This document shows, piece after piece, positions 4,888 to 62,575 of a stretch of DNA of 64,000 nt. How positions within the stretch are numbered: the first letter of the stretch is position 1; each line of letters starts with the position of its first letter. The DNA comes from Parcubacteria bacterium C7867-005 (lineage in GTDB: Bacteria > Patescibacteriota > Minisyncoccia > Phycocordibacterales > Zambryskibacteraceae). The translations under genes and the position numbers were made by a program. The notes under the pieces are model-generated. The model saw nothing but the letters and a program-made list of their open reading frames with translations. It was not told where the DNA came from and did no database searches. The stretch covers positions 10,987 to 74,986 of the forward strand of contig LFCO01000001.1 in assembly GCA_001189165.1 (NCBI GenBank), in the 5' to 3' direction.

Positions 4888-7116
4888 ATGATAAAAGCTT
4901 TGAGACAAAAAACTCTCGTCAAAATCACCACATTTTATATGTTGGTGGCCTTATCTTTAGGAAGTTTCCCCTTTGATGTGTTCGCCGATACCCCTACGAT
5001 CACACTCCTTGCGAATGGACAGAGTTCTCTGACCCTATCTGGTCCAACCGAATCCTTTACGATCACCCTAAGCACTGCGAATCCTGCAGATATTTGTACT
5101 CAAACATCTCCTATAAATTCAGGAATTTCTTCCTCTTCTAGTGAAAACATAGATCCAAGTCATCCATTTTATCCACCTGCTGGTGGCAGTACCACCTTTT
5201 CTGTCACCTGTGATGATGGGGCCGGACTCACTGCTTCTGCGAGTGTCACCGTCTCTCTGCCACCAGCACCGGCTCCACTACCCACAGTAGACCTGACCGT
5301 AAATGGCTCAAATGGACCTGTCACCCTTAACTCTGGAGACACCTATACATATTCTTGGAATTCAACAAACTCCACCTCCTGTGAACAGACTTCACCGGCC
5401 ACTTCCGGCATTGCTCTTTCAGGATCTAGTGCAACGATCGATTCCAGTAATCCTTTCTATCCATCAACCACCACTCCGGTAACTCTCACCATGACCTGTA
5501 CAGATGGCACTAACACAGCGAGCGACTCTGTGACAGTAAACCTCTCAAGCGGAGGAGGCTCTACGCCGACTTCTCCTACAATAGACCTGACCGTAAATGG
5601 CTCAAATGGACCCGTTGTTTTGAGCACCGGCAACACCTATACATATTCATGGAATTCATCTAACGCTACGTCCTGCCGAGAGACCTCTCCACTGTTCTCT
5701 GGAACCTCTCTATTTGGTACCAGTGCGGTTATAGATTCAAGCCACCCTTTCTATCCTTCTGTGGGTTCACCCGTCACCATCACTATCGAATGTACTGACG
5801 GAGCTGTTACTGTAAGTGACTCTGTCGTGGTTAGCCTCTCAAGCGGAGGTGGAAATCCAAATCCAACCACTCCTACTGTGGATATCAAGGCGAATGGTTC
5901 TGACGGTCCGGTCACCCTCAATTCTGGTGATACCTATACATATTCTTGGACATCGGCTAATGCTACTTCTTGTTTACAGACAGCTCCTATAAATGCGGGT
6001 GTTTCTGCTACAGGTACAAGTGCGGTTATAGACTCAAACAATACTGATCTTTATCCATTGGTAAACGCACCAGTCACCCTCACTATCACCTGTACAGATG
6101 GCACTAACACAGCGAGCGACTCTGTGACAGTAAACCTCTCAAGCGGAGGAGGGAATCCAAGTACCCCACCAGGGGATGATGACGACAATGGTGGTGGAGG
6201 AGGGGGAGGCAGACGCAGGTCAACACCCCCTGCGACAGACACACGCTCTTGCTTGTGGTTAAGGGATTATATGAGGATTGATTTTCAGAACGACCAGATA
6301 GAGGTTATGAAGCTCCAGACTTTCCTAAAGGACATGATGGGTTACAGTGGAGTCACCGTCACTGGTACCTTCGATCAGGGAACATTTGATGCTGTATCCG
6401 CTTTCCAGATGCAATATGAGGCAGATATCCTCACTCCATGGGGTCACACAGCTCCAACAGGTTATGTTTATATACTAACCCTCAAGAAGGTTAATGAGAT
6501 TTTCTGCCAGAGAGCCTTCCCTATAACAGACTCACAAGAATTAGAGATAATCGCCTTCAGAGCTCTGCTCCAGAGTCTCAGGGATAGGGGATTTGAGGTC
6601 GGAAATACGCCTGACGGCACGGTCCTCACGCCTCCAGAGGGAGCAACAACCACTCCGCCGGAGATACCGACCGTCGGTCAAGGACAAAATTTACGGAATC
6701 TGGCCTCAGCCATATTCACACTCCCAACAGATCTGGGCGACTTCATGCAGTGCCTATACGAGTGGTTACTCATAGTAATTGTCCTTTATATCTTGGGAAG
6801 TGTCCTTAAAGATGTCCTTTATAAGGATCTCCCAGAGAATAGTCGAAAGAGATTCTTTGTGAAGTGGATAACAATATTAGCTGGCCTCGTCATCTCTATC
6901 GTATTGGCTCTCATATTTGGCGAGCTATGTATTATCTTCCCACTCGCCCTGTCATTCCTAGTGGCACTTATGTGGATTCTCACCAGCAAGAATCATGACT
7001 CGATCAGAGTCTCAGTCAAATCTTGGTACATCGTCCTCATGGCAAGATCTAAGTCTTTCTTCAATAAGGCAAACAGACCAAAGGAGATAGAAGCACCAAA
7101 GATTCCTAAAAACTAA
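4888..7116 (+). CDS. large secreted/cell-surface protein: signal peptide, 4 tandem Ig-like repeats (~95 aa), Gly-rich linker, peptidoglycan-binding (PG_binding_1-like) domain, C-terminal 3-TM anchor
   Basis: Repeated motif TVNGSNGPVTLNSGDTYTYSWNS..SC..TSP x4; PGBD signature LQTFLKDMMGYSGVTVTGTFDQGTFDAVSAFQ; GGGGGGGRRR linker; hydrophobic C-terminus. Confidence 0.7.
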   Translation: MIKALRQKTLVKITTFYMLVALSLGSFPFDVFADTPTITLLANGQSSLTLSGPTESFTITLSTANPADICTQTSPINSGISSSSSENIDPSHPFYPPAGGSTTFSVTCDDGAGLTASASVTVSLPPAPAPLPTVDLTVNGSNGPVTLNSGDTYTYSWNSTNSTSCEQTSPATSGIALSGSSATIDSSNPFYPSTTTPVTLTMTCTDGTNTASDSVTVNLSSGGGSTPTSPTIDLTVNGSNGPVVLSTGNTYTYSWNSSNATSCRETSPLFSGTSLFGTSAVIDSSHPFYPSVGSPVTITIECTDGAVTVSDSVVVSLSSGGGNPNPTTPTVDIKANGSDGPVTLNSGDTYTYSWTSANATSCLQTAPINAGVSATGTSAVIDSNNTDLYPLVNAPVTLTITCTDGTNTASDSVTVNLSSGGGNPSTPPGDDDDNGGGGGGGRRRSTPPATDTRSCLWLRDYMRIDFQNDQIEVMKLQTFLKDMMGYSGVTVTGTFDQGTFDAVSAFQMQYEADILTPWGHTAPTGYVYILTLKKVNEIFCQRAFPITDSQELEIIAFRALLQSLRDRGFEVGNTPDGTVLTPPEGATTTPPEIPTVGQGQNLRNLASAIFTLPTDLGDFMQCLYEWLLIVIVLYILGSVLKDVLYKDLPENSRKRFFVKWITILAGLVISIVLALIFGELCIIFPLALSFLVALMWILTSKNHDSIRVSVKSWYIVLMARSKSFFNKANRPKEIEAPKIPKN
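5290..6170 (+). repeat. DNA-level tandem repeats (~290-bp period) inside the surface protein gene
   Basis: Near-identical stretches e.g. gtaaatggctcaaatggacc (5301, 5592) and gcgagcgactctgtgacagtaaacctctcaagcggagga (5518, 6112). Confidence 0.65.
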
Positions 7117-8272
7117 GATTTCCGTTCGCCTTTAGCCGTTCTGGATTACCTGTGGATAACTTGTTGATTACTTTACCGCCAGAAATCTGGATATAGGCTG
7201 AAATACCTATCATCACTGCATTGTCTGTTGTCAAGGATTTCTCTGGTAGAAGTAGGTCGAGCCCAGAGAATTTGTCCGCGAGCTTGTGTAGCTCTCTTTG
7301 TAGATGGATGTTTTGAGATACTCCACCAGCGACAATCAGAGTTTTAGTATCGTATTTTTCTAAGGCTTGTTCGGTTTTGCTAATAAGTACTTCTACGGCC
7401 GAGTCCTCGAATTCATGAGACATCTCTTCTCGGATGTTTTCATTCACACCAGTTTCTTTTAATTTATATAAAACAGAAGTTTTCAGTCCAGAAAAAGAAA
7501 AGTCCAGATCTTTTGAATTGATCATCGGACGGGGTAAGGAAAAGGTTGGGACGAGGTTCTTGGATCGATGAAGTTCTGCAAGGGCAGAGACCTTTGGTCC
7601 GCCTGGATAAGGGAGGTCCAGTAAGCGAGCGACCTTGTCGAAAGCTTCGCCTACTGCATCATCTCTGGTCTTGCCTACGATCTTATATTCACCAAAGTTT
7701 TTGATATATACGAGTTCGGTGTGTCCTCCGGAAACAAGCAATGCAAGGGCGGGGAATACGAGTTTTTCTTTCAGATTAAGTAATGGGGAATAGATGTGAC
7801 CCTCCATATGATTCACTGGGTATACGGGCAGATCCCACAAAACTCCGAGTGCTTCTGCAAAGACTATACCTACCCACAATGCTGGTTCGAGCCCGGGACC
7901 AGTGGTTACTGCGATAGAGTCTATGTTTGGTTTATCTATCTCTAATATTTCTTTGGAGAACAATTTATATAGATCAGGCTCTTTGGTCAGGATTTTCTCT
8001 ATTTTCTCGATCATCTCTTGTGTTGGTTTTAAGCCGTATTTGGATTCGCCAAAGGCTTGTCTGAGGGTGGTGAGAAGAATGGGGACGAGGTTCTTGGCAT
8101 GTTCCCTGCGAGCGAGATTTGGATAGACCCCACCGAATTCTTTGTGGAGGTCTATCTGAGAGACAAGGGTGTTGCCAAGCACCTTGAATTCAGGGGATTT
8201 TAGCCCTCCTTCGGCCTCAAGTATGGCTATGGCTGTCTCATCACAGCTAGTTTCTATGGCTAAAATTTTCAT
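7106..8272 (-). CDS. tsaD: tRNA N6-adenosine threonylcarbamoyltransferase TsaD (Kae1/Gcp)
   Basis: MKILAIETSCDETAIAIL N-terminus, HMEGH metal-binding motif, GGVSQN. Confidence 0.85.
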   Translation of the reverse strand: MKILAIETSCDETAIAILEAEGGLKSPEFKVLGNTLVSQIDLHKEFGGVYPNLARREHAKNLVPILLTTLRQAFGESKYGLKPTQEMIEKIEKILTKEPDLYKLFSKEILEIDKPNIDSIAVTTGPGLEPALWVGIVFAEALGVLWDLPVYPVNHMEGHIYSPLLNLKEKLVFPALALLVSGGHTELVYIKNFGEYKIVGKTRDDAVGEAFDKVARLLDLPYPGGPKVSALAELHRSKNLVPTFSLPRPMINSKDLDFSFSGLKTSVLYKLKETGVNENIREEMSHEFEDSAVEVLISKTEQALEKYDTKTLIVAGGVSQNIHLQRELHKLADKFSGLDLLLPEKSLTTDNAVMIGISAYIQISGGKVINKLSTGNPERLKANGNLSF

Positions 8273-11283: not shown

Positions 11284-12003
11284 ATGCAGATCAGTTGGAA
11301 GTCAGTCCTCATCTACCTCGCGCTCTTCATGGGTCTCGGTGCCTCAGAGCTTGGGGCCCAGCAGATGCCCCAGAGCGCTCTCCAGCGTGGCCGGATGGCT
11401 GTGCCGAACAACGCGGAGATCGACAAGTATCCGCTCAAGGATACGGTCCTCACCCAAGCGGAGATGTCTTCGCTTGGGGTGCGCGCGGACACGCTCGAGG
11501 CCGACTGGACCGGATACAACTGGTTCAGGAACGTCAGGCGGTTCGCTTACGAGACGCTCCCCAAGGGGACCATCGTACTCGTGGACGGCGCCGGCAAGGT
11601 TCGGTACAAGGCAGACTGTGGTAACCGCCTCGTCGAGAAGGAGCAGATCCTGAACGCGATGGTGGCCACGAACACGATGCCGGATTCGTTGATCCGTCTC
11701 CTGCTCGCGAATAACTCGGCGCGGGTCACACCTGAGCTGATCAAGGAGATCATCCTTCGAGGCACAGTCACGTTGAACCACGAGTTCTCGGCGGAGTTCT
11801 TCCAGACTCTCGCTGCGGCCATCGTGGCTGCAGGGCAACCCGCACAGCCGGTACCACCGTTCCGTCCATCAGACGGTCGGAGCTACTGGTCCAAGCACAA
11901 GCCGGGGATCATCATCGGGGGCGTCCTGCTCGCTGGAGGTCTCGTCGCTCTGGCACAGAACGACTGGTGCTTGGTGTGCAACATCACGAACGTGTATCGA
12001 TAG
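11284..12003 (+). CDS. GC-rich secreted hypothetical protein (signal peptide and C-terminal TM)
   Basis: SP LIYLALFMGLGASELGAQ; C-terminal GIIIGGVLLAGGLVALA; GC-rich hairpin terminator gggcgggtgcatcactgcacccgccc downstream. Confidence 0.5.
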   Translation: MQISWKSVLIYLALFMGLGASELGAQQMPQSALQRGRMAVPNNAEIDKYPLKDTVLTQAEMSSLGVRADTLEADWTGYNWFRNVRRFAYETLPKGTIVLVDGAGKVRYKADCGNRLVEKEQILNAMVATNTMPDSLIRLLLANNSARVTPELIKEIILRGTVTLNHEFSAEFFQTLAAAIVAAGQPAQPVPPFRPSDGRSYWSKHKPGIIIGGVLLAGGLVALAQNDWCLVCNITNVYR

Positions 12004-13058: not shown

Positions 13059-14222
13059 TTATTTTAATTTTGAACGGCGGAGGAAAGCGGGTACAGCACC
13101 CCAATCATCATCAGGATCATCCAGATGTTTGTCCGGAGTTTCCTTTTTTTCTTCCGCTGGTTTCTCTACAGGTTTAGGGAAGACGGGCATGCTGTTAAAT
13201 ATTTTGTCCTTGGTTATGTCCTCTCCAGGAGTTGATTGAAATAGGGAAGTGGCCTTGCGTTGAACACTCTCAGGGAAGCTTGAGGCGATAACAGTGATCT
13301 TGACCTCGCCCTTCTTAAGCTTCTCGTCTCTGACCGTACCGAAGATGATCTTGGCATTTGGATCCACAGATTCGGTGATAACTTTGGCTGCGTCTTGGAT
13401 CTCGAACATGGTGAGGTCGTCTCCACCAGCGATAGAGAAGAGCACACCCTTGGCACCGTTGATAGAGACTTCGAGGAGTGGTGAAGAGATAGCAAGTCGT
13501 GCTGCTTCTTCTGCACGTTTTTCACCAGAAGCATGTCCGATACCCATGAGGGCCGCGCCAGCATTTTCCATCACTGCGCGAATGTCTGCGAAGTCGATGT
13601 TGATGATACCCGGGGTAGTGATGAGGTCAGAGATACCTTCTACGGCTTGTTTCAATATATTGTCGCAGGTAGCAAAGGCATTCTTGGCAGTAGTATCTTT
13701 ATCTATAGTAGCGAGCAATCTGTCGTTAGGGATGATGATGATGGCGTCTACTGCCTGTTTGAGCTCTTCTATGGCCGCTTCTGCGATCTTCATACGTTGT
13801 GTTCCTTCAAAAAAGAAAGGTTTGGTGACCACTCCGACAGTCAGACAACCGGCTTCTTTGGCTGTACGAGCGAGCACCGGGGCTGCTCCAGAACCAGTAC
13901 CACCACCCATACCACAAGCGATGAACACCATATCTGCTCCCTTGATCGCTTCTTGGATTTCTTCTTTTGTTTCTTCAACCGCACGTTTGCCGAGGTCGGG
14001 GTTCATGCCTGTACCCAAACCACGAGTGAGGTTTTTGCCTATATGAATTTTTCTTTTGGCGAGTGAGTGGTGGAGGTCTTGTGCGTCAGTGTTTACAGAA
14101 ATAAAGTCCACTCCCTTAACTTTAGAGTTGATCATATGATTCACTGCATTTTTTCCTGAACCACCAACACCGATCACTTTGATCCGGGCGAATGCTTCTA
14201 CTTCTGGTTTGATTTGTGGCAT
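13059..14222 (-). CDS. ftsZ: cell division GTPase FtsZ
   Basis: IKVIGVGGSGKNAVNHM and tubulin signature GGGTGSGAAPV. Confidence 0.95.
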   Translation of the reverse strand: MPQIKPEVEAFARIKVIGVGGSGKNAVNHMINSKVKGVDFISVNTDAQDLHHSLAKRKIHIGKNLTRGLGTGMNPDLGKRAVEETKEEIQEAIKGADMVFIACGMGGGTGSGAAPVLARTAKEAGCLTVGVVTKPFFFEGTQRMKIAEAAIEELKQAVDAIIIIPNDRLLATIDKDTTAKNAFATCDNILKQAVEGISDLITTPGIINIDFADIRAVMENAGAALMGIGHASGEKRAEEAARLAISSPLLEVSINGAKGVLFSIAGGDDLTMFEIQDAAKVITESVDPNAKIIFGTVRDEKLKKGEVKITVIASSFPESVQRKATSLFQSTPGEDITKDKIFNSMPVFPKPVEKPAEEKKETPDKHLDDPDDDWGAVPAFLRRSKLK

Positions 14223-14345
14223 GTTTTTCTGTTTTGGCCGGCCCGTCCTCTGTAGGCTAGTCTTTGACTGTTAATGATGGCCATATACTACAGAAAGCCA
14301 CTATAAAAGAAAACCCGTTGACATTTATCTTTAAAGTTTTATTAT

Positions 14346-14942
14346 TTGCGAGGATTTCTGAACAAAAACCTGAGCCATGAGGCTACCTTGAAATACTTCG
14401 CGATCGTGAGAAACGGTGTCGTGCGAGCCGGTCCGAACGGCGGACCTCCTCGCCTCATCAGTCCGGATGGAGAGGGTCAGATGAGGCGAATCGGTCGGAT
14501 TCTCCAGCCACTCCTTACGGGGATCGACCACATCGCCCTTTCACTCTGCGCTGGCTCGGAGAGCTACCTCAGCCTTTCGGCCCAGAAGCTCCGAGAGGGC
14601 ATCCATTGGCCAGACAAGGTCAGATCGGAGACGCATACGTGCCTCGACCGATCGGATGACGGTCCGACTGTGGTGGCGGAGTGTCTGCGCCTGTTCAGTC
14701 GTATGAACCGGTGGTGTGACAAGGGTACGATCATCTTCGTCACCGGGGAGAAGCTCTCGATGGCCATCCCCAATGCGTACCTTGAGCGGATCGGTGTCAG
14801 GAACGAAGGTTTCAGCATGCCGCTCGAATACGCTTCGGCCCTCGTCATCGACGCGACCAAGCTCCACCGCTTCAGGGTCTTCGACCACCAGGAGCCGGAC
14901 AACGCAGTGTCGAAGTGGCTTGCCACGCCACTGGAGAAATAA
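14346..14942 (+). CDS. GC-rich hypothetical protein, opposite strand between ftsZ and ftsA; faint histidine-phosphatase-fold resemblance (RNG in place of RHG)
   Basis: 198 aa; GC-rich with overlapping antisense ORFs (14541-14950) that I regard as compositional artefacts. Confidence 0.35.
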   Translation: MRGFLNKNLSHEATLKYFAIVRNGVVRAGPNGGPPRLISPDGEGQMRRIGRILQPLLTGIDHIALSLCAGSESYLSLSAQKLREGIHWPDKVRSETHTCLDRSDDGPTVVAECLRLFSRMNRWCDKGTIIFVTGEKLSMAIPNAYLERIGVRNEGFSMPLEYASALVIDATKLHRFRVFDHQEPDNAVSKWLATPLEK

Positions 14943-14988
14943 CCGCTCATCGAGCGGTTATCTTATTATCAAAAATTAAACACAGTTA

Positions 14989-16191
14989 CTACGGGAGGAA
15001 TTGTCCAAACCATTTACCCAGAGAGTTTAATCCAGGCTTGAGGGCACTTGATATGGCTTTCATTGGACTTGGTCCGGTGATGTTTTGTTCACCGTCTACA
15101 TTGAAACCGAAAATCGAGAGCCCATAAGCCACTGCCCAAGCCTGGTCCCTAGTCTTTGTTTTCAGTTCTTCACCGAAATGTATCTCGGCTATTTTGGACG
15201 GAAGCTTTAGAGTATTTTCGGCCAATGTTTTTATGTTTACGATACTTGACCCTCCACCGGTGATCACTATCCCAGCTGGCAACAATGCATTTCGACCGAT
15301 CCTTTTAAGATGGGTTTCAATGAGTTCGAACATGTCTGTCAATCGAGCCGTCACTATCTCTTCCAGTTTTTTCTTTGAGATATTTGAGCTGGTTACTGAT
15401 CCAAGTTTTATAGACTCGGCTTCTTCGAGTGACACCTTTAATCCGAGGGCGATGTCGTTTGTTATGTCGTTCCCGCCGATGGGGAATACTTCGAGTGATA
15501 CAGGATTCGAATTCTCGAAGACGACTATTGAAAGAGTCTCTGCGCCGATGTTTGCAAGTACGCACCCAGCCTTTTTCTGATTTTTGGAAAGGGTAGAGAA
15601 ACTCGCAGCTATGGGTGCGGCTACGACGTCGATCACTTCTATGTCTGCTGATTCAACTGCCTGGATCAGGTCTTGGATATGATGTTCTAAGCACATGATG
15701 AAGAGGACCTTGGCATCGACTTTTTGTGCCTTCAGTCCCAGTACTCGACCCCACGCTACCTTACCATCGGTCTTGTATTCGATCGGTATGGTGTTGATTA
15801 TTTTTTTATTCAAAGCAACTGCGTGGGGGATAGCAGTCTCTGCACCTTCCTGTGCTTTTTCCAAATCAAGTTTAGTGATCTCCAAATCTGCACGAGAGAC
15901 GATCGCAGAGCCGGTGGTGGTTACCCCAGATAATCCGATCCCTCCGACAGAGATGAATGCACGTTTGACATAAATCTTGGCGAACTTCTCTGCTTCCTTG
16001 ACAGCGCTCATAATACTGCGAGTCGCCTCGTGTTGATTGGTGATATAGCCGTGGTGGAGACCCTTGGATTCTGCAGAACCCATCCCTATGATCTTGTGGA
16101 CAGATTTTCCTCCTTCAAGAGTTTCTTCTGCGATAACCACCCGCACTTCCCGCGTGCCTATATCAATGCCGGTTATGATCTGGCGTGCCAT
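14989..16191 (-). CDS. ftsA: cell division protein FtsA
   Basis: MARQIITGIDIGTREVRVVIAEE actin-fold N-terminus; SHS2 insert; full length 400 aa. Confidence 0.9.
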   Translation of the reverse strand: MARQIITGIDIGTREVRVVIAEETLEGGKSVHKIIGMGSAESKGLHHGYITNQHEATRSIMSAVKEAEKFAKIYVKRAFISVGGIGLSGVTTTGSAIVSRADLEITKLDLEKAQEGAETAIPHAVALNKKIINTIPIEYKTDGKVAWGRVLGLKAQKVDAKVLFIMCLEHHIQDLIQAVESADIEVIDVVAAPIAASFSTLSKNQKKAGCVLANIGAETLSIVVFENSNPVSLEVFPIGGNDITNDIALGLKVSLEEAESIKLGSVTSSNISKKKLEEIVTARLTDMFELIETHLKRIGRNALLPAGIVITGGGSSIVNIKTLAENTLKLPSKIAEIHFGEELKTKTRDQAWAVAYGLSIFGFNVDGEQNITGPSPMKAISSALKPGLNSLGKWFGQFLP

Positions 16192-16216: not shown

Positions 16217-16606
16217 CTAGATCCCGAATTTCTTGCGTAAGAAACTTTCCCTTTTCTCCATTGTATCCCCATGGTCGAATCCTTTCAAATGAAAAAGGCC
16301 GTGGATAAAGAGAAATCCTATGAAGTTGTCGAATTTCCTATCGAAATTTTTCGCTTGTTTTTTGGAGAGTCGTAGGTTGATGAAAATCTCACCGCTTGAT
16401 TTAGAAAGTGAAAACGAAAGTATATTTGTTGGTTTGTTTTTATCTCTGTACGTTCGATTCAGGTTTTGTGATTTTTTGTCACCGATGAAAACCAAAGAAA
16501 GTTCGTATTTTTTGCCGAGCACAGCATCTTTCATCTTCTGATATGGCAAAGAAGGGAATCTTCCCTTGGTGGTGTTAGATATGGATAGTTCTAGAGATTC
16601 AGACAC
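16217..16606 (-). CDS. ybeY: rRNA maturation endoribonuclease YbeY
   Basis: IHGLFHLKGFDHGDTME = HxxxHxxGxxH zinc motif of YbeY. Confidence 0.85.
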   Translation of the reverse strand: MSESLELSISNTTKGRFPSLPYQKMKDAVLGKKYELSLVFIGDKKSQNLNRTYRDKNKPTNILSFSLSKSSGEIFINLRLSKKQAKNFDRKFDNFIGFLFIHGLFHLKGFDHGDTMEKRESFLRKKFGI

Positions 16607-17009: not shown

Positions 17010-17324
17010 TCAGCAGAGTAGGATCGGCGTGGCTCGGGTGGTGAGGGCCTGCATGACCGAGAGCCTGATCAGGGAGTTGACCCCGTTGAGGCTGGACTCG
17101 GACGATGAGAGCTCGATGGCGGAGAGGAACGCATCCTTCTCCGACCGTTCGATTCGACCCTCCTCGGCGAGCGCCATGACGAGTCCCTTCGCGACCTCGA
17201 GGGAGCCGAAGCCGTGCCTCGAGAGGTCGCTGAGCTGGACATGGCCTTCCTGGCCACAGAACTTGCAGATATGCAGACTTGCCTTGCGACGCATGCGAAT
17301 CTCCCCGGAAAGACGGTGAACCAT
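17010..17324 (-). CDS. GC-rich hypothetical protein with an incomplete CCHC knuckle (CKFCGQEGH)
   Basis: 104 aa; GC-rich; followed on the minus strand by tandem hairpins (16925-17008); frame uncertain because 17029..17319(+) overlaps. Confidence 0.25.
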   Translation of the reverse strand: MVHRLSGEIRMRRKASLHICKFCGQEGHVQLSDLSRHGFGSLEVAKGLVMALAEEGRIERSEKDAFLSAIELSSSESSLNGVNSLIRLSVMQALTTRATPILLC

Positions 17325-21013: not shown

Positions 21014-21473
21014 AAAGGCAGTCCGAGTTGGACTGCATCGCTTTGGTAAGTGCTATTGCTTGAGGGTAACCGGCAGTCCCGACTGGCGTAGTCGTCCGGG
21101 ACTGCCGGCCCCATTTGGTGGCATCTCGAGAAGTGTCTTAGCCCAGTTTTCGACCGGGACATTAACACTTACGCGTGCGAGAAGGTGGCTTTGGTTACCA
21201 CGACCCCACCTATGCTTTACCTTCGGAGCATTCGTCGTCCTCCATGACGGTGGCTGGGCCTGGGCAACGATGCCGGTGGAGACCCATGTTCATGATGCGC
21301 GATTCGTTCGCGCGGGATCGGCCGCGGGCTTCGGACCGCGGCGACGTATAGCGGACTTGATACTCAGCAACAGCTTGTATATGTACTGCAAGGAGGGAAA
21401 ACTCACTCCCGAATATTCTGTCTTAATCATATCATACCCAAATCTTTTGTCAAGCGGTTTGGGTTTACCGCTT

Positions 21474-21508
21474 CCCCCCGTGTCAACCTGCCAGGTTGAC
21501 ACGGGGGG
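21474..21508. repeat. 35-bp perfect palindrome ccccccgtgtcaacctg-c-caggttgacacgggggg (copy 1)
   Basis: Arms exactly reverse-complementary; core gtgtcaacctgScaggttgacac shared with the copy at 42911-42947. Confidence 0.75.
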
Positions 21509-21543
21509 ATGAAGACAGCCCCCAAAGCGCGGGGCTTTGGGGG

Positions 21544-21819
21544 CTAGGGGTGGATCTCGACGCTGTCCTGGAGGAACTCGGGGTCGCTCTTGCAGAAGGG
21601 ATGATCCTTCGGTAGAGGGCACCCGAGTTGGACATCTTGCGGGGCGATGGGGGATATCAGACCCAATTCCTCGATCTCCTCTGGGGTCATGCTGCGGTAT
21701 CCTCTGGTCTCATCTGGCCATAGGCTTGGCATCTGTATAGCATCTGCAACCGCTGATGCTAGGACGAGAGCAACCAACACCATGAAAGCTTTCAGCGCCT
21801 TGCGTACTGAGATGGGCAC
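21544..21819 (-). CDS. GC-rich small secreted protein (signal peptide MVLVALVLASAVADA)
   Basis: 91 aa; GC-rich; GC hairpin cccccaaagcgcggggctttggggg immediately downstream. Confidence 0.4.
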   Translation of the reverse strand: MPISVRKALKAFMVLVALVLASAVADAIQMPSLWPDETRGYRSMTPEEIEELGLISPIAPQDVQLGCPLPKDHPFCKSDPEFLQDSVEIHP

Positions 21820-25472: not shown

Positions 25473-25916
25473 CTACCGGCGCGTGATGACCATGTTCTGC
25501 GTGACGAGCTCGTCCCTCCCGCCGTTGCAGGAGATGACGATCCTCGTCTGCTTGCTCGCGGCCGAGGGGTACCACCGATGCGACGGACCGATCTCGATCG
25601 GCTTCATGTCGGTCGGGACCTTGAAGGTGTCGCCGCCGGCGTTGATCCAGCATTCGTACGCGTACTCGGTCACGAGACCGATCACGAAGGTCTTGCCCTC
25701 CGCGACCTTGTAGAACTTCTCCTCGTTGCCCATCTCGTCCCGGACCGCGTTCGGCGCGATCGGATTCGCATCGGTGTCGATGGTGAGACCCTCGGAGGTC
25801 ACGGTCATCTTGAGGATGGTGACGCTCTCCGTCTGCGCGGCGACCGTGTTCATGATCGGCGCGAAGAGGAAGGTCGCGAGGAGGACGAGGAACTGTCCGA
25901 ACCGGCGGGTGTGCAT
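25473..25916 (-). CDS. GC-rich secreted hypothetical protein (signal peptide)
   Basis: MHTRRFGQFLVLLATFLFAPIMNTVAAQ SP; balanced composition, unlike the overlapping Arg/Asp-rich ORFs in other frames. Confidence 0.5.
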   Translation of the reverse strand: MHTRRFGQFLVLLATFLFAPIMNTVAAQTESVTILKMTVTSEGLTIDTDANPIAPNAVRDEMGNEEKFYKVAEGKTFVIGLVTEYAYECWINAGGDTFKVPTDMKPIEIGPSHRWYPSAASKQTRIVISCNGGRDELVTQNMVITRR

Positions 25917-26050: not shown

Positions 26051-26584
26051 ATGATAAGTTCTCCAGAGAAGAATGTTTCTGAGTTTGGTTTTATGCCCGG
26101 TCAGAAAGTTGCTGATTTTGGTTCGGGTGCCGGCCACTATGTCTTTGTATTATCCAAAGTACTTGGGCCAACTGGCAGGGTCTATGCAGTAGATTTAAAC
26201 GAAGATTTATTAGTTCGCCTGGTCAAGGAAGCAGACAGTATGAGCGCAGACAATGTCCGGGTTATAGAAGGGGATGTTGAAACTGTGCGTGGCACTGAAT
26301 TGAAAGATGAGATACTAGATGGGGTTCTGTTCTCGAATATGCTCTCGAGCCTCTCATCTATAGATGCTGCGCTCACGGAGGCAGTGAGGATACTAAAGAA
26401 AGGGGGGAGGGTGTGTGTGGTGGATTGGAAAGACTCGGGTTTGTTTGAGGCCGAACAGTCCAAAACTAAACGCAAGATGGTCACAGAGTCAGATGCCAGA
26501 AACCTCTTAGCCAAAGCCGGTCTTATGTTTGTAAAATCTTTTGATACTGGGGATCACCACTACGGTCTTATTTTTAAAAAATAG
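26051..26584 (+). CDS. class I SAM-dependent methyltransferase
   Basis: VADFGSGAGHY glycine-rich SAM motif I; YAVDLNEDLL motif II. Confidence 0.75.
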   Translation: MISSPEKNVSEFGFMPGQKVADFGSGAGHYVFVLSKVLGPTGRVYAVDLNEDLLVRLVKEADSMSADNVRVIEGDVETVRGTELKDEILDGVLFSNMLSSLSSIDAALTEAVRILKKGGRVCVVDWKDSGLFEAEQSKTKRKMVTESDARNLLAKAGLMFVKSFDTGDHHYGLIFKK

Positions 26585-30290: not shown

Positions 30291-31214
30291 TCACTTCACC
30301 TCGAAGAGGTGGAGCTTGAGTGGAGCACTTTCCACACCTTCTCTGGTCTTGAACGACAGGAGCTTGCCCCGGTGATTCTCCACCGAGTCGATCGTGACCT
30401 TTGCGGTGTCGAACCACTGTTCGAGAGAGTACCCGTGTGGAACCTGCACCACCTTCGGACTGCCTGTCCTTAGGGTGCCGGTGCTGGTGAATTCCTCCAC
30501 GACCGGTTCGCGGTGAGCAACGACGGACGCGGTGGTACTTACACCAAAACCCCCGATGAGCTTCACCCACGGTCTCCAGAGGAAGGAGAAGAAGAAGAGT
30601 ACGAAGGTGAGCCACATCAGGTTTCTCGCCTTCTTGAACGACGGGCTCAGGTTGCTGTTCACGACCACCGTGAAGGCGATGAGCACGTGCCCGACCCAGA
30701 ACAGGGTGTTGCCCCGGAGCCACTTGTAGGCTTCCGGACTGCCCCAGCTCGCGATCCAGTGGAACGCAATCACGAATCCGAGGACGATCAGGTACACGGT
30801 CCATTGGGGCTTCCAGGTGAGTCCACCCGTGCCCCTCTTGTCCCATACCTTCTTGATTCCCCAGGTGATGAGTGCCAACCCAGCGAGTCCTGCAAGAACT
30901 GAGAGGCTGATCCAGAGCCACTTGAATGAGCCGAGGCTGATGCCCTCGCCGATCGCAGAGCTCATCATCCATGCGATGATGATCACTGCGAGTACGAGCA
31001 AGGCCAGGAAGACCCTGACCCTGCCCTTGGTCCAGCGAACCTTCTTCGGGGAAGCGCTCGTTGTCGGAGCACTGCCTGCGGCAGCGCGATTCCTGAATTT
31101 GTTCACAGTCCATTCGACCATGAGCTTCACTTCTGCATACCTGTTCCCGAACCACTGTCCGACCTTCGTCGAACCGGTGTTTCTGTTGGTGTACCACTGT
31201 CCGATCTTTCCCAT
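30291..31214 (-). CDS. GC-rich hypothetical polytopic membrane protein (4-5 TM)
   Basis: 307 aa; GC-rich; Trp-rich TM helices; no motif recognised. Confidence 0.4.
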   Translation of the reverse strand: MGKIGQWYTNRNTGSTKVGQWFGNRYAEVKLMVEWTVNKFRNRAAAGSAPTTSASPKKVRWTKGRVRVFLALLVLAVIIIAWMMSSAIGEGISLGSFKWLWISLSVLAGLAGLALITWGIKKVWDKRGTGGLTWKPQWTVYLIVLGFVIAFHWIASWGSPEAYKWLRGNTLFWVGHVLIAFTVVVNSNLSPSFKKARNLMWLTFVLFFFSFLWRPWVKLIGGFGVSTTASVVAHREPVVEEFTSTGTLRTGSPKVVQVPHGYSLEQWFDTAKVTIDSVENHRGKLLSFKTREGVESAPLKLHLFEVK

Positions 31215-31343: not shown

Positions 31344-32387
31344 TTACTTCGTACCACCGACCACCGGGAGCGCACCACTGCCGTAGACGACGGTGGTTGC
31401 CACTCCGTTCTTCTCGTGTGCGGTTGCCCACCTGTTGGCAGGCTCGTTCGCGAGCTTCATGGTTGGCTCAGTCACACGAGTGTACAGATCAGCCGCTGCG
31501 TCGTTCAGGAGCATCTTCTCCTTCTTCTCAGCTTCAGCGTTGGTGATTCTGACCCTCGCCTGCGCCTCGGCTTGCACCTGCAGTTCGAGGATCGCTTCTT
31601 GCTTCGGATCCATCGTTGGTGACAGCATGCTCATCGACTTGATCTTGAGACCCAGCTGTTCAAGGGCCTCTGCGTGGAAAGCATCATTCTTCATGATTGC
31701 ATCCACAAGGTCCTGCTTGAGCTTGCCAGAGTTGGCACCACCACGATAGTCTGCGGCGTTGTTCCCACCGACGATGTTACTCACGATGCTCTCGATCATC
31801 CCCTCGAGGTACGCGAGTGGGTTTGACACCCGCAACACAGATCGAATGGGGAAGACCCGCTCGAAGATCAAGTTGAACCTGAATCCGAGCTTGAGCTGGT
31901 CCTTGGTCTCGAGGCCTTCAAGATTGGCGACGAGATCCCCGGAGTAGTAGATGAACTTCGGGAGTTGGTCGCTGTTCTCGACAACCCGGTTCCCGTCCGC
32001 ATCCCTTTTGTTGCTGAAGCGGAGGTGAACGTCCGAGTTAGTCCGCACGCTGGGGAACAAACTGATCCACTCGACGCCGAGCAGTTTATACAGAAGCTTG
32101 TCGTGTCTAGGATCGACCTCCATCCCATCGGGCAGATCCTTAACCTCCCAGTTCATCGGATCTGGGTCAGTCTTGTCGATGAACTTGCCGGGGATGGCAT
32201 GTCGGAGGTCGACAATGGCACCACCACCCTGGGTGGTCTTGCCGTCCTCCTTGTCGTCACTGACGATCAGAGCCAAGGCGTTGGCCGAGGTGATCAGCCA
32301 GAGACGGCCGATCCTGCCGAACGACCTGATACCCACGGCAATGCCGAGGATGATCAGGAAGAGGATGAAAATGATGGCGCCGAACAT
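31344..32387 (-). CDS. SPFH/band-7 (prohibitin/flotillin-like) membrane protein
   Basis: N-terminal TM and SPFH core; C-terminal Ala/Glu-rich coiled coil ILELQVQAEAQARVRITNAEAEKKEK; start at MFGAIIF (32387) supported by RBS AAGGAG 7 nt upstream. Confidence 0.65.
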   Translation of the reverse strand: MFGAIIFILFLIILGIAVGIRSFGRIGRLWLITSANALALIVSDDKEDGKTTQGGGAIVDLRHAIPGKFIDKTDPDPMNWEVKDLPDGMEVDPRHDKLLYKLLGVEWISLFPSVRTNSDVHLRFSNKRDADGNRVVENSDQLPKFIYYSGDLVANLEGLETKDQLKLGFRFNLIFERVFPIRSVLRVSNPLAYLEGMIESIVSNIVGGNNAADYRGGANSGKLKQDLVDAIMKNDAFHAEALEQLGLKIKSMSMLSPTMDPKQEAILELQVQAEAQARVRITNAEAEKKEKMLLNDAAADLYTRVTEPTMKLANEPANRWATAHEKNGVATTVVYGSGALPVVGGTK

Positions 32388-32503
32388 CCGATGTCTCCTT
32401 GTGGCAAAGCCACGAGAGTAGTAATGCAATCAACGAGCATCTAGTTCTGGCGGAATTTTATCACAAAACGACACAGAAGTCAAGTTGGAATTGAGCTTAG
32501 TTT

Positions 32504-38313: not shown

Positions 38314-39132
38314 ATGGCGAACATGGAAGACCTCACAAAAACGCAGATGGTCCTTCTCACGCTTCTCGTGAGTTTTGTTACCTCTATTGCGACGGGGATA
38401 ATCACCGTGTCACTTCTGGCCGAGGCACCCGCGAGTGTTACTCAGACCATTAATCGTGTTGTAGAGAGGACTATAGAAAAGGTTACTCCAACTAATCCAA
38501 CCAGTTCAGGGGTTAAGGAGGTAACCATAGTCAAAGAAGAAGACGCGATAATCAGCGCCATAGACAAATCAGTCAGAGCGATAGTTCGCATCAAGACACC
38601 AGTTGATCCATACGGTACTCAGAACTTTTATGCCCTGGGCGTTGTGGTGTCCAAAGATGGTCTGGTCCTCTCAGACAAAAGAACACTGGTCTTAAATGGC
38701 ATTTACGATATCGTCTTGGCGGATGGCACGGTTTTGCAAGCAAACATCGTTCGTATGAGCGAAGAAGATAACCTCGCGCTCTTTAGGATAACTCCAGATA
38801 TTGCTCATACGAATAATTTTGACTTCATTTCTGTTTCAGATAGCGAACTCAAGTTAGGTCAAACAGCGATCGCTATACAGGGTATGGAAAAGAATACAAT
38901 CGGCATCGGACGCATTATGTCTGTCAACTATAGAAACGAAGCGGACACAAAAACTCTCTACAGTGTCGATACGGATATCAGTTCTATAAATGAAATCCAG
39001 GGCAGTCCATTGTTTAATCTCTCTGGTGAACTGGTAGGCATCAAGACATCCTACGATGATCTCAGTGTGCCTAGGGGTGCATACACCACATCAGTACCGA
39101 TGTCGGCGATAGTGGAGTTAGCACAACAGTAG
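38314..39132 (+). CDS. membrane-anchored trypsin-like (S1C/HtrA-like) peptidase-domain protein with degenerate GSPL in place of the GNSGGPL catalytic motif
   Basis: N-terminal TM; IQGSPLFNLSGELVGI aligns with the HtrA catalytic Ser region. Confidence 0.45.
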   Translation: MANMEDLTKTQMVLLTLLVSFVTSIATGIITVSLLAEAPASVTQTINRVVERTIEKVTPTNPTSSGVKEVTIVKEEDAIISAIDKSVRAIVRIKTPVDPYGTQNFYALGVVVSKDGLVLSDKRTLVLNGIYDIVLADGTVLQANIVRMSEEDNLALFRITPDIAHTNNFDFISVSDSELKLGQTAIAIQGMEKNTIGIGRIMSVNYRNEADTKTLYSVDTDISSINEIQGSPLFNLSGELVGIKTSYDDLSVPRGAYTTSVPMSAIVELAQQ

Positions 39133-42571: not shown

Positions 42572-43459
42572 TTAGAGGGCTATCCTAACATATTTCTCTA
42601 TTTCTTTGGATGCCCCAGATTCAAACCATTTTATGGACTTGTTCCTTTTAAACCAAGTCATTTGGCGTTTTGAATACTGTTTTATTTCTGTATAGAGTCT
42701 CTCTCTCATCTCCTGTCTGTCGATCTTATCCTGGAGAAACATAGCGATATATTTATATTCTAGTCCTAGGCTCTGCATACGCTTCCAAGTAAGTCCACGA
42801 TCATGCAACCTCTTACCCTCCTTAATCATCGGTTCCATGCGTTTGAGCAATCGTCTGTATATTTTTTCTTCAAGGTCTTTTTGCTCGGGTCTGATACCGA
42901 TGAATACGGTCTCCCACTGTGTCAACCTGGCAGGTTGACACAGTGGGACATGACCCAAGGCAGATACTATTTCAAGTGCTCGGATTAGGCGAACCTTGTT
43001 TTTAGAATCTATAGATTTCGCTCGAACAGGATCTTTCTTTTGAAGCATCATATACAACTCGTGAGCATCTTTTCTCTCCAGTCTTTCCCTCAGCACTTTA
43101 TTTGGTGGGACTTCAGGTAGATTAGTTTCTCCTATGAGGATGTCTATGTAAAACCCCGTACCACCGACGATAATCGGTGTTTTATTCCTTTCGAGGATAT
43201 CTATCAATATTTTTTCTCCGAGCACCTTGTAGTCAGAAGCAGAGAATGATTTCTTTGGATCTGCCACATCAAGCATGTGGTGAGGTATGTTGAGCATCTC
43301 TTTCTTGGTGATTTTTCCTGCACCTATGTTCAAACCTTTATAGACCTGTCTAGAATCAGCAGAAATAATCTCGCCATTAAATTTCTTGGCGAGGGAAACC
43401 GCAAGGGAACTTTTGCCCGATGCTGTTGGGCCGACTATGATTAAAACCTTGGGCTTCAT
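42572..43459 (-). CDS. miaA: tRNA dimethylallyltransferase
   Basis: VLIIVGPTASGKSSLAVSLA P-loop, ISADSRQVYKGLNIGAGK. Confidence 0.9.
   Translation of the reverse strand: MKPKVLIIVGPTASGKSSLAVSLAKKFNGEIISADSRQVYKGLNIGAGKITKKEMLNIPHHMLDVADPKKSFSASDYKVLGEKILIDILERNKTPIIVGGTGFYIDILIGETNLPEVPPNKVLRERLERKDAHELYMMLQKKDPVRAKSIDSKNKVRLIRALEIVSALGHVPLCQPARLTQWETVFIGIRPEQKDLEEKIYRRLLKRMEPMIKEGKRLHDRGLTWKRMQSLGLEYKYIAMFLQDKIDRQEMRERLYTEIKQYSKRQMTWFKRNKSIKWFESGASKEIEKYVRIAL
42911..42947. repeat. 37-bp perfect palindrome tcccactgtgtcaacctg-g-caggttgacacagtggga inside miaA (copy 2, encodes ...PLCQPARLTQWE...)
   Basis: Exact inverted arms; 23-bp core identical to the 21474-21508 copy except for the complementary centre base (the same element in the opposite orientation). 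Confidence 0.75.
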
Positions 43460-48327: not shown

Positions 48328-49188
48328 TCAGAAAGCTTTCCTTACTTCACCAAGCTCTTCAAAGATTAATCCCTTTATTTCAAGTAATGAGAGTACTGCA
48401 TTCGCTTTACCGATATCCAGTTTTGATTTTCTGATGAGTTCATCTCTACCTCTGGGGATATCGAGTAGTTCTATAAAAAGTTTTTCCTCAGTACCCAAAT
48501 CATTCATATCAAAAAGTGTTTGACCTTCGTCTTTTCGTTTTATACCGAGTAGCTCGAGCACATCGTTCGCATCTCTGATGAGGGCAGACCCTAACCTGAT
48601 GAGCATGTGGGGACCATCTGAAGTGGGCGAGGTAGTTGGACCAGGGACTGCCCCTACTTCGCGGTTGTATTCTGTGGCCAGGCGAGAAGTTATGAGAGTA
48701 CCAGATTTTTTCTCTGCTTCTATGACAAGGGTCGCATGACACATCCCTGCCATGATTCTGTTTCTTTGGGGGAATGTATAGTATTGGGCTTTCATATCAT
48801 CATCAAACTCAGACAATAATCCACCGCCGGATTCTATGATCTCATTTGCTAGGCCTACATGTGCTTGCGGATGCAGAATTTTTCTGGACAATCCAGAGCC
48901 GGGGACAGCGATAGTTTGTAACCCAGCGTTGATAGCAGCGCGATGCGCGATCGAATCTATGCCCAGTGCGAGTCCGGAGACAATGGTGATCGGATAACCA
49001 GAGAGTCCAGCGATGATCGACTCACAAATTTCTCTACCATAGGCTGAGTACTTCCTCGAACCAACAACTGCTAGGAGCTTGTTGTTTTCTCTGGGCAACT
49101 CTCCCTCATACCTCAGGTTTTTGGCTTTGTCGTTGATCTCCTTTAATAGAATGGGGAATTCCCCAGGTAGGAGATCTCTAATGGTCAT
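48328..49188 (-). CDS. dprA: DNA-processing protein DprA/Smf
   Basis: Rossmann-like core LLAVVGSRKYSAYGREI...TIVSGLALGIDSIAHRAAINAGLQTIAV. Confidence 0.8.
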   Translation of the reverse strand: MTIRDLLPGEFPILLKEINDKAKNLRYEGELPRENNKLLAVVGSRKYSAYGREICESIIAGLSGYPITIVSGLALGIDSIAHRAAINAGLQTIAVPGSGLSRKILHPQAHVGLANEIIESGGGLLSEFDDDMKAQYYTFPQRNRIMAGMCHATLVIEAEKKSGTLITSRLATEYNREVGAVPGPTTSPTSDGPHMLIRLGSALIRDANDVLELLGIKRKDEGQTLFDMNDLGTEEKLFIELLDIPRGRDELIRKSKLDIGKANAVLSLLEIKGLIFEELGEVRKAF

Positions 49189-52621: not shown

Positions 52622-53157
52622 TGTTTTGACAGTCATCTTGCATATAGTATATTTAGATTTCTGGTGCTAAGCGGTAGCGGACAGACGTGTCTCTACGGAG
52701 CCCAGATCCTGCACCCTCAGTTCCATTCACCCCAGGAGGTTCACGGTGCCCCGACGTAACGCCCCGTCGTTCCACCTGAAGATCGCCCAGACCGCGTACC
52801 AGCAGGCGAAGGCCGGGATCCTCACCGGCAAGAGCGCGACCGATCCGCAGTACACCGACGGCGATTCCGCCGCGGCCATCCGCGCCTAGCACAAGGCGAA
52901 GAGCGCAACGCGCGGACACGAGGTACACCGACGCAAGACACACATCAGCGCCGGTGCGACCCAGATCGTCTTCCTGAAGTGAACACAACCGTCCGCAAGG
53001 ACACCTACCCGCACCGATTTCCATCGGTGCGAATCTTTTTATATAGGCTATTGACTTTATTTTGTATATATGCTAGGGTTAACTTGTTGAGGTCGAGCGA
53101 CAGGGAATCACCCTGTGAGGCCACAACAAGCACACTCCACTCGTTCGGAGGATCCAC

Positions 53158-53313
53158 ATGATCAGCCGCTCCCTCGCTCCGCCGTCCGTCGCGCTCCTCT
53201 CGGCCACCCACACGGGGGCCCGTATGAACACCATGGTCCATCGCGGCGCGAACATCGTCGGCATCGGCATCCACGGCTCGGGCGCGTCGCCCGCCGCCGG
53301 CTCCCGCGACTAG
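53158..53313 (+). CDS. candidate GC-rich mini-ORF (51 aa, MISRSLAPPSVALLSATHTGARMNTMVHRGANIVGIGIHGSGASPAAGSRD) with RBS GGAGG; coding status uncertain
   Basis: AT-rich promoter-like block (TTGACT..TATATA) at 53045-53075, GGAGG 6 nt before ATG, two downstream hairpins; ends at TAG. Confidence 0.25.
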   Translation: MISRSLAPPSVALLSATHTGARMNTMVHRGANIVGIGIHGSGASPAAGSRD

Positions 53314-53613
53314 CACGGCCGCGGCGCCGATCACTGTCATTCGACAGAAGGCATCAGCCCTTCGGTTGAACTGACGGCAACCTCTCGTGCTTCTCTGTAC
53401 GAGTAGGACTTCGTTCGAGTACGACTCGGGAGTGCCGACGGGGTGGATCGTTTGAATCCATCGCCGTCGGCACGACCCGACCCCCCGCGCACCCTAACCC
53501 GGTGCGTTTAACTTTTATAAAATTTCCCTGTGCGTGTATAATAAGATTCTGGTTGGGGATGCAGTTTGCAAACTCTAACCAGATGTTCTCACATCCTTCC
53601 ACGGAGTCCTGCC

Positions 53614-53736: not shown

Positions 53737-53799
53737 TCCATGGAATACGGTGCGTGAACACCCCCGAGCGACTCATGTGAGTCGCTCTCTTTAATACAG

Positions 53800-59964: not shown

Positions 59965-60058
59965 CCTAAATTAGCATGTCATCAATTGGGGGCTATCTGA
60001 CTGGCTAAATAAGTTAATTTAAAAAATCCAACTTCTGCATTGACTAATTATTTTATAA

Positions 60059-62541: not shown

Positions 62542-62575
62542 GGAAATTTAAACACGCTAGTGCTAGTGTGTTTAT

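Follow-up and report, generated by a model that had tools for sequence, protein, structure and literature searches.

A GC-rich orphan open reading frame with predicted expression signals in the ftsA-ftsZ spacer of Parcubacteria bacterium C7867-005

The ftsA-ftsZ locus and its insert

We analysed a 64-kb stretch of the metagenome-assembled genome of Parcubacteria bacterium C7867-005 (hereafter the window; coordinates are positions of this stretch unless a relative is named), in which the division genes ftsA and ftsZ are separated by a GC-rich open reading frame (ORF) on the opposite strand. ftsZ occupies 13059-14222 on the minus strand (387 aa; Pfam Tubulin, 1.1e-48, and FtsZ_C, 4.6e-32), and its product is 72-87% identical to FtsZ in 80 relatives. 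ftsA lies at 14989-16191 on the same strand (400 aa; Pfam FtsA, 1.3e-24, with PilM_2 and SHS2_FTSA) and shows 48-69% identity to relatives. The spacer between them (14223-14988) measures 766 bp and holds the ORF at 14346-14942 on the plus strand, which is 198 codons long when counted from the first TTG. The ORF list and Pfam agreed with all the coordinates that a first-pass annotation of this DNA had given for the two genes, the spacer and the 198-aa ORF. The genome is a metagenome bin of moderate coverage with 563,550 bp in 3 scaffolds and 42% GC (PMC4508563), and the only database match of the ORF was its own GenBank entry, AB200_00140. The surroundings are chromosomal: ftsA, ftsZ, trxB, ybeY, rpsU and hisS lie in conserved synteny, and the replicon also carries tRNAs and aminoacyl-tRNA synthetases.

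The spacer consists of three segments with a sharp GC jump at both junctions, namely 14223-14348 (GC 0.37), 14349-14962 (0.59) and 14963-14988 (0.15). The first segment (0.373 before rounding) is native spacer beside ftsZ, comprising the leader and promoter region on the minus strand, and it aligns with the whole short spacer of four relatives (L001, L014, L009 and L012). The middle segment reads on the plus strand as a leader, the ORF and a terminator hairpin, has 59% GC over 614 bp and finds no counterpart in 77 relatives. The last is an AT-rich remnant of the spacer (minus strand) directly after the ftsA stop codon, whose native origin is suggested by its composition only. In the first pass ~770 bp had been described as foreign-looking; only about 614 bp (14349-14962) fit that description, as 14223-14348 aligns with the spacers of relatives. 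For the ORF itself we obtained a GC content of 0.59-0.60 and a GC at third codon positions (GC3) of 0.73-0.75. The 48 core ORFs of the window, which served as reference, have a GC of 0.428 +/- 0.032 (maximum 0.481) and a GC3 of 0.426 +/- 0.057, which places the ORF at z = 5.2 for GC and z = 5.7 for GC3. The GC deviation that had been claimed earlier was thus confirmed at z > 5.

A candidate sigma-70-type promoter of the ORF was found at 14318-14345 on the plus strand (-35 TTGACA at 14318-14323, a 16-nt spacer and -10 TATTAT at 14340-14345), with 11/12 matches to the consensus. Its -35 hexamer is the reverse complement of GTCAAC, a word conserved upstream of ftsZ (see below). Since the whole stretch from -35 to -10 aligns with the spacer of L001, the closest relative, the predicted cassette promoter lies in native DNA and appears to have been built from it. 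It stands back to back with the predicted promoter region of ftsZ, at a distance of about 50 bp. Because TTG 14346 abuts the -10 box, it cannot be the start codon. A Shine-Dalgarno (SD)-like GAGG (14379-14382, plus strand) is located 5 nt (CTACC) before TTG 14388, which is the likely start codon, also chosen in the JGI annotation, and gives a product of 184 aa; the maximal frame from 14346 would give 198 aa, and the NCBI start, GTG 14406, gives 178 aa. The layout of GGAG, GAGG or AGGA followed by a C-rich spacer is shared with six other GC-rich ORFs of the window, and GAGG-CTACC-TTG matches GGAGGCTCC-ATG, AGGAGATCCC-ATG and similar arrangements before them. A mini-ORF of four codons at 14377-14391 (ATG AGG CTA CCT TGA) overlaps the SD motif, and its stop codon overlaps TTG 14388; it is probably meaningless, but could reflect translational coupling. 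By eye, the product of the ORF has neither a transmembrane segment nor a signal-like N-terminus.

At the other end of the insert, a perfect hairpin with a 10-bp stem and a 3-nt loop (ATAACCGCTC-ATC-GAGCGGTTAT; 14939-14961) overlaps the stop codon of the ORF. It is U-rich on both sides and lies 27 nt past the stop codon of the convergent ftsA. For these reasons the hairpin is a candidate two-way terminator, which probably terminates both convergent genes. In relatives, too, ftsA is often followed by a hairpin, as seen by eye.

The ftsA-ftsZ spacer in relatives

The 80 related loci come from Zambryskibacteria/Paceibacteria metagenome-assembled genomes, and the gap statistics were taken from the 77 loci with both genes. 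The gene order pth-lepB-hisS-rpsU-ybeY-ftsA-ftsZ-trxB is conserved in relatives. The ftsA-ftsZ gap had a median of 112 bp (interquartile range 90-240); it was at most 260 bp in 61 of the 77 relatives and at least 400 bp in 14. In L001, whose FtsZ is 86-87% identical, the gap is 120 bp long and contains no ORF, and this empty site aligns seamlessly with the spacer of the window. No homologue of the ORF was detected by tblastn in any of the 80 loci, and the occupants of the slot elsewhere are unrelated to it, so a conserved gene of the division cluster was rejected. These results confirmed two proposals of the first-pass annotation, that a gene had been inserted between ftsA and ftsZ and that the division genes tolerated it: the nearest relatives are uninterrupted, relatives have no conserved intervening gene, and the GC deviation is significant. 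Judged from synteny, the insertion is specific to the C7867-005 lineage.

In the 14 relatives with long gaps, the slot is occupied by other small ORFs on either strand, which belong to at least three mutually unrelated families (L008/L017, L023/L033 and L032/L064) or are singletons. Pfam recognised no domain in these ORFs apart from a weak match to AAA_28, below threshold, in one long ORF of L032, and none of them resembles the ORF of the window. Because 14 long gaps hold unrelated ORF families, the ftsA-ftsZ spacer is, on this comparison, a permissive slot that has been filled recurrently. The first-pass annotation had missed both the filling of the slot by unrelated small ORFs in 14/77 relatives and the fact that the ORF is one of about 11 similar cassettes in the window. 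Four of the slot ORFs, all small and on the opposite strand (L016 5352-5744(-), L023 5023-5412(-), L033 5333-5998(-) and L066 5426-5794(-)), have C-termini that look helix-turn-helix-like by eye (...TP.Q..V....L.E.....IA..L......V...DV..A....); the ORFs of L023 and L033 are homologous (E 2e-16). L001 carries GC-rich, SD-led and hairpin-terminated ORFs of its own in the neighbouring ftsZ-trxB and trxB-peptidase slots.

A conserved block was found upstream of ftsZ (14322-14285, minus strand), which reads GTCAAC-GGGTTTTCTTTT-N-CTGTAGTAT, ends 62 nt before the ATG and is a predicted promoter. It is composed of GTCAAC (14322-14317), GGGTTTTCTTTT (14316-14305) and an extended -10-like box, CTGTAGTAT, with TAGTAT at 14290-14285. 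The block occurs once in the window and is conserved before ftsZ in relatives with a gap of about 100 bp. The composite motif was present in 28 of the 80 loci versus 0.04 expected from shuffles, GTCAA in 38 (8.7 expected) and the extended -10-like box in 52 (12.9 expected). In relatives with long gaps, for example L008, L037, L064 and L066, inspection of the upstream sequences by eye indicated that the block stays adjacent to ftsZ. Conservation of the block in short-gap relatives means that the predicted ftsZ promoter region predates the insertion; it is ancestral, and the insert would have landed upstream of the intact block. The expectation of the first-pass annotation that ftsZ now needs its own promoter did not hold, as short-gap relatives have the upstream block too. 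With respect to the division genes, the outcome is an ordinary one: ftsZ keeps its ancestral, clade-wide block, and the 'split operon' is not a regulatory novelty. In five other relatives (L016, L023, L033, L044 and L049) a different conserved block just upstream of ftsZ replaces the GTCAAC block. A promoter-like site is also present before ftsA (16260-16288, minus strand; TTGAAA-17-TACAAT), inside the 3' end of ybeY and 69 nt before ftsA; it is known only as a consensus match (10/12).

GC-rich ORFs of the window and the clade

The window contains at least 11 GC-rich ORFs (GC 0.55-0.63, GC3 0.66-0.95), all between core genes. By GC and GC3, these are 11284-12003, the ftsA-ftsZ ORF (14388-14942), 17010-17324, 21544-21819, 25473-25916, 30291-31214, 31344-32429 (with an SPFH domain), 54137-55009, 56156-56662, 61250-61588 and 61756-62508. 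The GC3 of 25473-25916 reached 0.95 in a background of 43% GC. No paralogy was detected among the 11 ORFs, nor with the slot occupants of relatives. Nevertheless, in relative synonymous codon usage (RSCU) each ORF correlated with the rest of the class at r = 0.66-0.88, except for the 91-codon 21544-21819 at 0.40, versus r = -0.24 to 0.09 with the core. For the ftsA-ftsZ ORF itself, r was 0.81 against the remaining members of the class and -0.13 against the core.

The class also differs from the core in its predicted expression signals. In the 110 nt upstream, a promoter that matches the consensus at 10/12 positions or more was found for 7/11 GC-rich ORFs vs 4/48 core ORFs (Fisher p = 2.4e-4), and SD-like motifs occurred at -17 to -4 for 7/11 vs 3/48 (p = 9e-5). 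Over 58 nt spanning and following the stop codon, the median folding energy was -24.8 kcal/mol for GC-rich ORFs and -6.9 kcal/mol for core ORFs (p = 2.6e-5). In contrast, a leaderless-like -10 box ending 4-12 nt before the start was present in 14/48 core ORFs and in 0/11 GC-rich ORFs (p = 0.05). Core starts with a TAnnnT -10-like box include those of 7106-8272, 26051-26584, 38314-39132, 46109-48280, 48328-49188 and 59087-59557. Such boxes next to core ATGs suggest leaderless mRNAs, and this would imply two styles of translation initiation in one small genome. About 8 of the 11 GC-rich ORFs have signal peptides or membrane segments as judged by eye. Sense RNA of three GC-rich segments folded better than dinucleotide shuffles (14388-14942, z = -2.6; 11284-11838, -2.3; 54137-54691, -5.0), compared with +0.3 for ftsZ, and excess mRNA structure appears to be a property of the class.

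The same analysis was extended to 75 usable related loci, in which an ORF was called GC-rich when its GC3 exceeded the core median of the locus by more than 0.15 and conserved when it occurred in at least 6 loci. We found 29 GC-rich ORFs in 25 loci, each present in at most 4 loci, whereas 0/571 conserved ORFs were GC-rich. SD-like motifs preceded 52% of the 29 GC-rich ORFs vs 4.8% of the conserved ORFs, and the downstream hairpins had -17.1 vs -6.9 kcal/mol. The proposition that GC richness extends to all lineage-specific ORFs of the clade was rejected, as unique ORFs had a median GC3 excess of about 0 and only 11% were strongly GC-rich.

Searches with the other members of the class yielded little. 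The SPFH-domain ORF (31344-32429), tried as a route to a donor, matched only itself in a word index of 5.8 billion clusters. Viral scans of two further GC-rich ORFs were empty, and PHROGs and PADLOC searches with nine other GC-rich ORFs (61250-61588 left out) gave only one weak PHROG of unknown function, for 61756-62508. Orphan status was searched for two class members, the ftsA-ftsZ ORF in a library of 1.84 billion representatives and the SPFH-domain ORF in the 5.8-billion-cluster index. The cassette ends share no common sequence except for one hairpin pair. This pair, at 61607-61644 and 62510-62547, consists of 38-nt hairpin terminators (AAGCCGATCCTAAC.GATCGGCTTTCTTGTAT) that are 92% identical and follow two adjacent, unrelated GC-rich ORFs. 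In the limited literature that was searched, no description of GC-rich cassettes in genomes of the Candidate Phyla Radiation (CPR) was found, and the source paper of the genome is silent on them (PMC4508563).

The trxB-peptidase slot offers a further comparison. Both the window (11284-12003) and L001 (7252-8082) have in this slot a GC-rich ORF in the same orientation, encoding a signal peptide and a membrane anchor at the C-terminus. No homology between the two was detectable beyond a juxtamembrane RS(Y/H)WS motif (E = 0.27): either they are positional orthologues that evolve very fast, or the slot was filled independently in each case. A relative of the window ORF 11284-12003 with 37% identity is present in L040.

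Origin of the insert and alternative explanations

We consider it likely that ~14349-14962 is a single-gene, stand-alone expression cassette, which was inserted in the C7867-005 lineage after its split from the nearest sampled relatives. The cassette would have entered upstream of the ancestral ftsZ block, leaving the block intact beside ftsZ and the expression signals of ftsZ unchanged; ftsA and ftsZ were presumably already separate transcription units in the clade. Its transcription would run away from ftsZ and towards ftsA from the near-consensus sigma-70 promoter, the -35 element of which reuses the native GTCAAC/GTTGAC word. Translation from the SD-led TTG 14388 would yield the 184-aa orphan protein, and the transcript would end at the perfect hairpin that may also close the convergent transcript of ftsA. 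The DNA may have come from an unsampled gene pool sharing the codon dialect. Its entry may have been through illegitimate recombination, or through homologous recombination in the conserved division genes on either side. The cassette is part of a class of mutually unrelated GC-rich ORFs, at least 11 of them in the window, which has counterparts in about 1/3 of the related genomes.

Several observations weigh against this interpretation. Since neither a donor nor a homologue was found, only composition, codon usage, expression signals and synteny speak for a foreign origin. With respect to an insertion mechanism, the junctions showed no noteworthy flanking direct or inverted repeats, no target-site duplication and no mobility gene. 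The nearest relative is distant (FtsZ 86-87%), so that timing is loose and loss in relatives is formally possible. The promoter, SD motif and terminator are known as consensus matches only. The choice of the start codon was partly guided by the SD motif, so one of the 7/11 SD counts is circular, and without that ORF the count is 6/10, presumably still significant. The length of the ORF is weak evidence, since an equally long open frame occurred in 57/2000 shuffles of the 614-bp segment (p ~0.03). Finally, all copies of the locus are identical, so that they contain no polymorphism from which dN/dS of the protein could be derived.

Concerning the product, the ORF matched only itself in the word-indexed database of 5.8 billion clusters. 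A full HMMER search over the 1.84 billion representatives, which stand for ~15 billion predicted proteins, revealed no relative; the four other weak matches were artefacts of tandem-repeat proteins, whose score was summed over 5-14 repeats. No match was obtained in JGI metagenome contigs, IMG/VR or GenBank phages, nor in Pfam, NCBIfam, PHROGs, PADLOC or PDB sequences. A single-sequence AlphaFold2 model, for which no homologues were available for alignment, was of very low confidence (mean pLDDT 34, pTM 0.23).

The first-pass annotation had pointed to a faint histidine-phosphatase-like pattern in the product. A degenerate protein of the histidine-phosphatase/SixA fold that has lost catalysis seems unlikely to us. 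An hhalign comparison with three solved SixA sequences did place the first 55 residues in register along SixA (IVRNG/IMRHG, RLISPDGEGQ/RPLTTNGCDE, IALS/VLVSP), with RNG on RHG, at P = 0.042, and its size would be compatible, as would the succession of strands and helices in a predicted model of very low confidence. However, the hhalign probability was 1.2%, in a test of low power with three sequences only; there was no match to His_Phos_1 in Pfam, nor in NCBIfam or PDB sequences, even at E <= 10; and a Smith-Waterman comparison with Escherichia coli SixA (sequence verified as PDB 1UJB) gave z = -0.3, which is chance level. The motif reads VRNG, so the nucleophilic histidine of RHG is replaced by asparagine, and the expected position of the second catalytic histidine reads TGE by eye, although the alignment behind this placement found no support in the tests. 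The earlier hint was therefore not substantiated, and with the catalytic histidine of the SixA-like pattern missing, the product is not an active histidine phosphatase.

It is also improbable that the division cluster of the clade contained the gene from the start and most relatives lost it, so that deletion elsewhere rather than insertion here would explain the pattern. Such a history would agree with the ORFs found in the slot of 14/77 relatives and with the nearest sampled relative being not very close. However, the slot occupants fall into at least three mutually unrelated families plus singletons, none like the ORF of the window, and 61/77 relatives, including all the closest ones, have short gaps. 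The absence of a homologue among the 1.84 billion representatives and a composition and codon usage alien to the core argue further for insertion.

Very unlikely, in our opinion, is a structured non-coding RNA gene, or a segment acting mainly as RNA, in which the ORF would be incidental. It would account for a GC-rich island with a predicted promoter and terminator in an AT-rich genome, and for the sense strand of the insert folding better than dinucleotide shuffles (z = -2.6 to -3.0; antisense z = -0.4), a behaviour shared by the other GC-rich ORFs folded (z = -2.3 and -5.0). A 197-codon open frame also arose in 2.9% of shuffles. Against it stands the period-3 composition of the ORF: GC3-GC2 was 0.30, compared with <=0.21 in all 2000 dinucleotide shuffles (0/2000 as strong), and the codon-position values (GC1 0.59, GC2 0.44, GC3 0.73-0.75) follow the order GC3 > GC1 > GC2 of real GC-rich genes, whereas GC2 exceeds GC1 in the mirror frame of the opposite strand. 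The coding nature of the ORF is thus supported. In addition, codon usage is coherent with that of 10 other ORFs, the SD motif is at the right distance, and an Rfam scan of the region found no family match at the gathering threshold nor at E <= 1.

The Hypoth_Ymh (TIGR02391) family is tied to mobile and defence contexts; if the product were a divergent protein of this type, the cassette would serve in conflict or defence. The case came from tblastn against plasmids, where the ORF matched a TIGR02391 gene of a Rothia terrae plasmid at E = 7e-3, residues 50-112 aligning with the C-terminal R-x-x-x-x-H ... E.L..FS...RW.D..TI segment. On inspection, half of this alignment lay past the stop codon of the subject. 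With a profile built from 30 family sequences, hhalign aligned the last helix alone (38 columns; 7.8% probability, P = 0.0045), in a comparison chosen post hoc. Nor did the ORF match Pfam PF09509, NCBIfam TIGR02391, PADLOC or PHROGs, and the family-invariant I-R-N-P-x-M-H (R203 N204 P205 M207 H208) is represented by V-R-S-E-T-H, one residue shorter, with R-x3-H in place of R-N-P-x-M-H. We rejected the assignment as highly improbable.

The reproducibility of the locus was assessed in other assemblies. The 9,164 bp around ftsZ, including the cassette, are identical in a second NCBI assembly (DGYO01000004.1), Logan SRR5324951 and JGI 3300001199, so the junctions were not created by a single assembler. 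The source samples of the four records are possibly the same or related, so the identity shows assembly reproducibility and does not represent independent populations. Metagenome contigs were also searched for exact matches to the ftsZ promoter block, which revealed no strain variants with or without the cassette. On this identical DNA four pipelines made four different calls: NCBI 178 aa, JGI 184 aa and Logan 153 aa, all on the plus strand, and the second NCBI assembly 128 aa on the wrong strand. Gene callers evidently have difficulty with GC-rich cassettes when the genome is AT-rich. An assembly artefact, in which the contig had incorporated a piece of DNA from a GC-rich organism, might be suspected from the moderate coverage of the bin (PMC4508563) and the abrupt GC change at both junctions, but it is extremely improbable given the identical sequence from all four assemblies, a segment that is exactly one gene with its signals between intact genes, eleven such segments that respect gene boundaries, and GC-rich lineage-specific ORFs with the same features in 25 loci of related genomes.

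Comparison with known systems

The closest parallel to the inserted cassette was found in phages. In the concept of Hendrix and Juhala, a phage moron is a single ORF with its own promoter and terminator, located between genes that are adjacent in relatives, with a deviant composition and an unexplained acquisition (PMC4378225). Likewise, the cassette is a single ORF between genes adjacent in relatives, with a predicted promoter and terminator, a composition unlike that of its neighbours (GC z = 5.2, GC3 z = 5.7) and no recognisable recombinase site. It would be, in effect, the moron design in a cellular chromosome. However, its host is a CPR bacterial chromosome and not a phage or prophage, and no link to phages was seen for the ORF in PHROGs or in phage and viral collections. 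Furthermore, the insert is GC-richer, not AT-richer, than its neighbours, and the eleven cassettes have one codon dialect and are SD-led, in contrast to the SD-poor genes of the host.

Genomic islets, i.e. single-gene, strain-specific insertions in bacterial chromosomes, are similar in being small, lineage-specific, compositionally deviant and intergenic in a syntenic backbone, with slot cargo that varies among relatives. Acquired or orphan bacterial genes are usually AT-richer than the core. The cassettes differ in being 13-20 points GC-richer, with GC3 up to 0.95, in having no associated tRNA, integrase or insertion sequence (IS) element, and, in the case of the ftsA-ftsZ ORF, in carrying cargo without a homologue in the 1.84-billion-representative library. 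Integron cassettes are promoterless, arrayed beside intI and bounded by attC. They too are mostly single ORFs, often orphans, and of deviant composition; unlike them, the cassettes of the window are scattered over 64 kb, have their own predicted promoters and share no end sequence save the 61607/62510 pair. An integron cassette was rejected for the insert, as the ends share no common sequence in the window and there is no array. We also rejected an IS element or a miniature inverted-repeat transposable element, as there were no terminal repeats or target-site duplication, no transposase domain in the ORF, and neither a second copy of the insert nor dispersed repeats in the window.

With regard to the division genes, internal ftsZ promoters exist in the division and cell wall (dcw) cluster of E. 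coli and Caulobacter. The arrangement here is comparable in that ftsA stands directly before ftsZ on the same strand, with dedicated, predicted promoter elements upstream of ftsZ. It differs in the convergent foreign gene between ftsA and ftsZ and in the position of the ftsZ block, which lies in the spacer and not inside ftsA.

The single ftsA-ftsZ case is a modest curiosity, and the class of cassettes is the more interesting lead. Base composition, codon usage, predicted promoters and terminators, and translation-initiation signals were compared, and the GC-rich accessory genes of the window differ from the core in all of them. It is possible, and we propose it only tentatively, that CPR genomes of the Zambryskibacteria type harbour a second coherent gene population, in which a promoter, an SD leader, a GC-rich orphan ORF and a hairpin form cassettes with a codon dialect of their own, placed in permissive slots, such as the ftsA-ftsZ spacer, of a backbone that is AT-rich and mostly lacks SD motifs. 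If so, they would have a chromosome-wide cellular counterpart of phage morons, drawn from an unknown shared gene pool or vector, and possibly distinct modes of translation for accessory and core genes in these episymbionts. If the pattern is genome- and clade-wide, it would help to understand how ultra-small symbionts obtain and express the proteins particular to their lineage, most of which are secreted or lie in the membrane. It would also raise the question of the source of the DNA, and the sequence signature (GC3 jump, SD motif and hairpin) could be used to find such genes.

Further observations in the window

Three other GC-rich stretches, 52626-54136, 21051-21453 and 60040-60622, gave no convincing ORF on which we could settle. 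Very strong promoter matches there were located at 52626 (11/12), 53800 (12/12), 21453 on the minus strand (11/12) and 60040 (10/12). The stretches may be further cassettes, decayed cassettes or RNA genes.

Two near-identical perfect palindromes of 37 nt, TCCC..GTGTCAACCTG.CAGGTTGACAC..GGGA, were observed at 21473-21509 and 42912-42948. The first is intergenic beside a GC-rich ORF; the second lies in frame in a MiaA-like gene (42572-43459), where it encodes ...HVPLCQPARLTQWE... Both contain the GTCAAC/GTTGAC word that is conserved upstream of ftsZ, and they could be sites for a regulator or a small palindromic element.

The ORF at 4888-7116 encodes 742 aa, with an unusually high GC at second codon positions (GC2 0.52) and three tandem repeats of ~294-300 bp with 64-83% identity. 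Its product is probably a repetitive surface protein.

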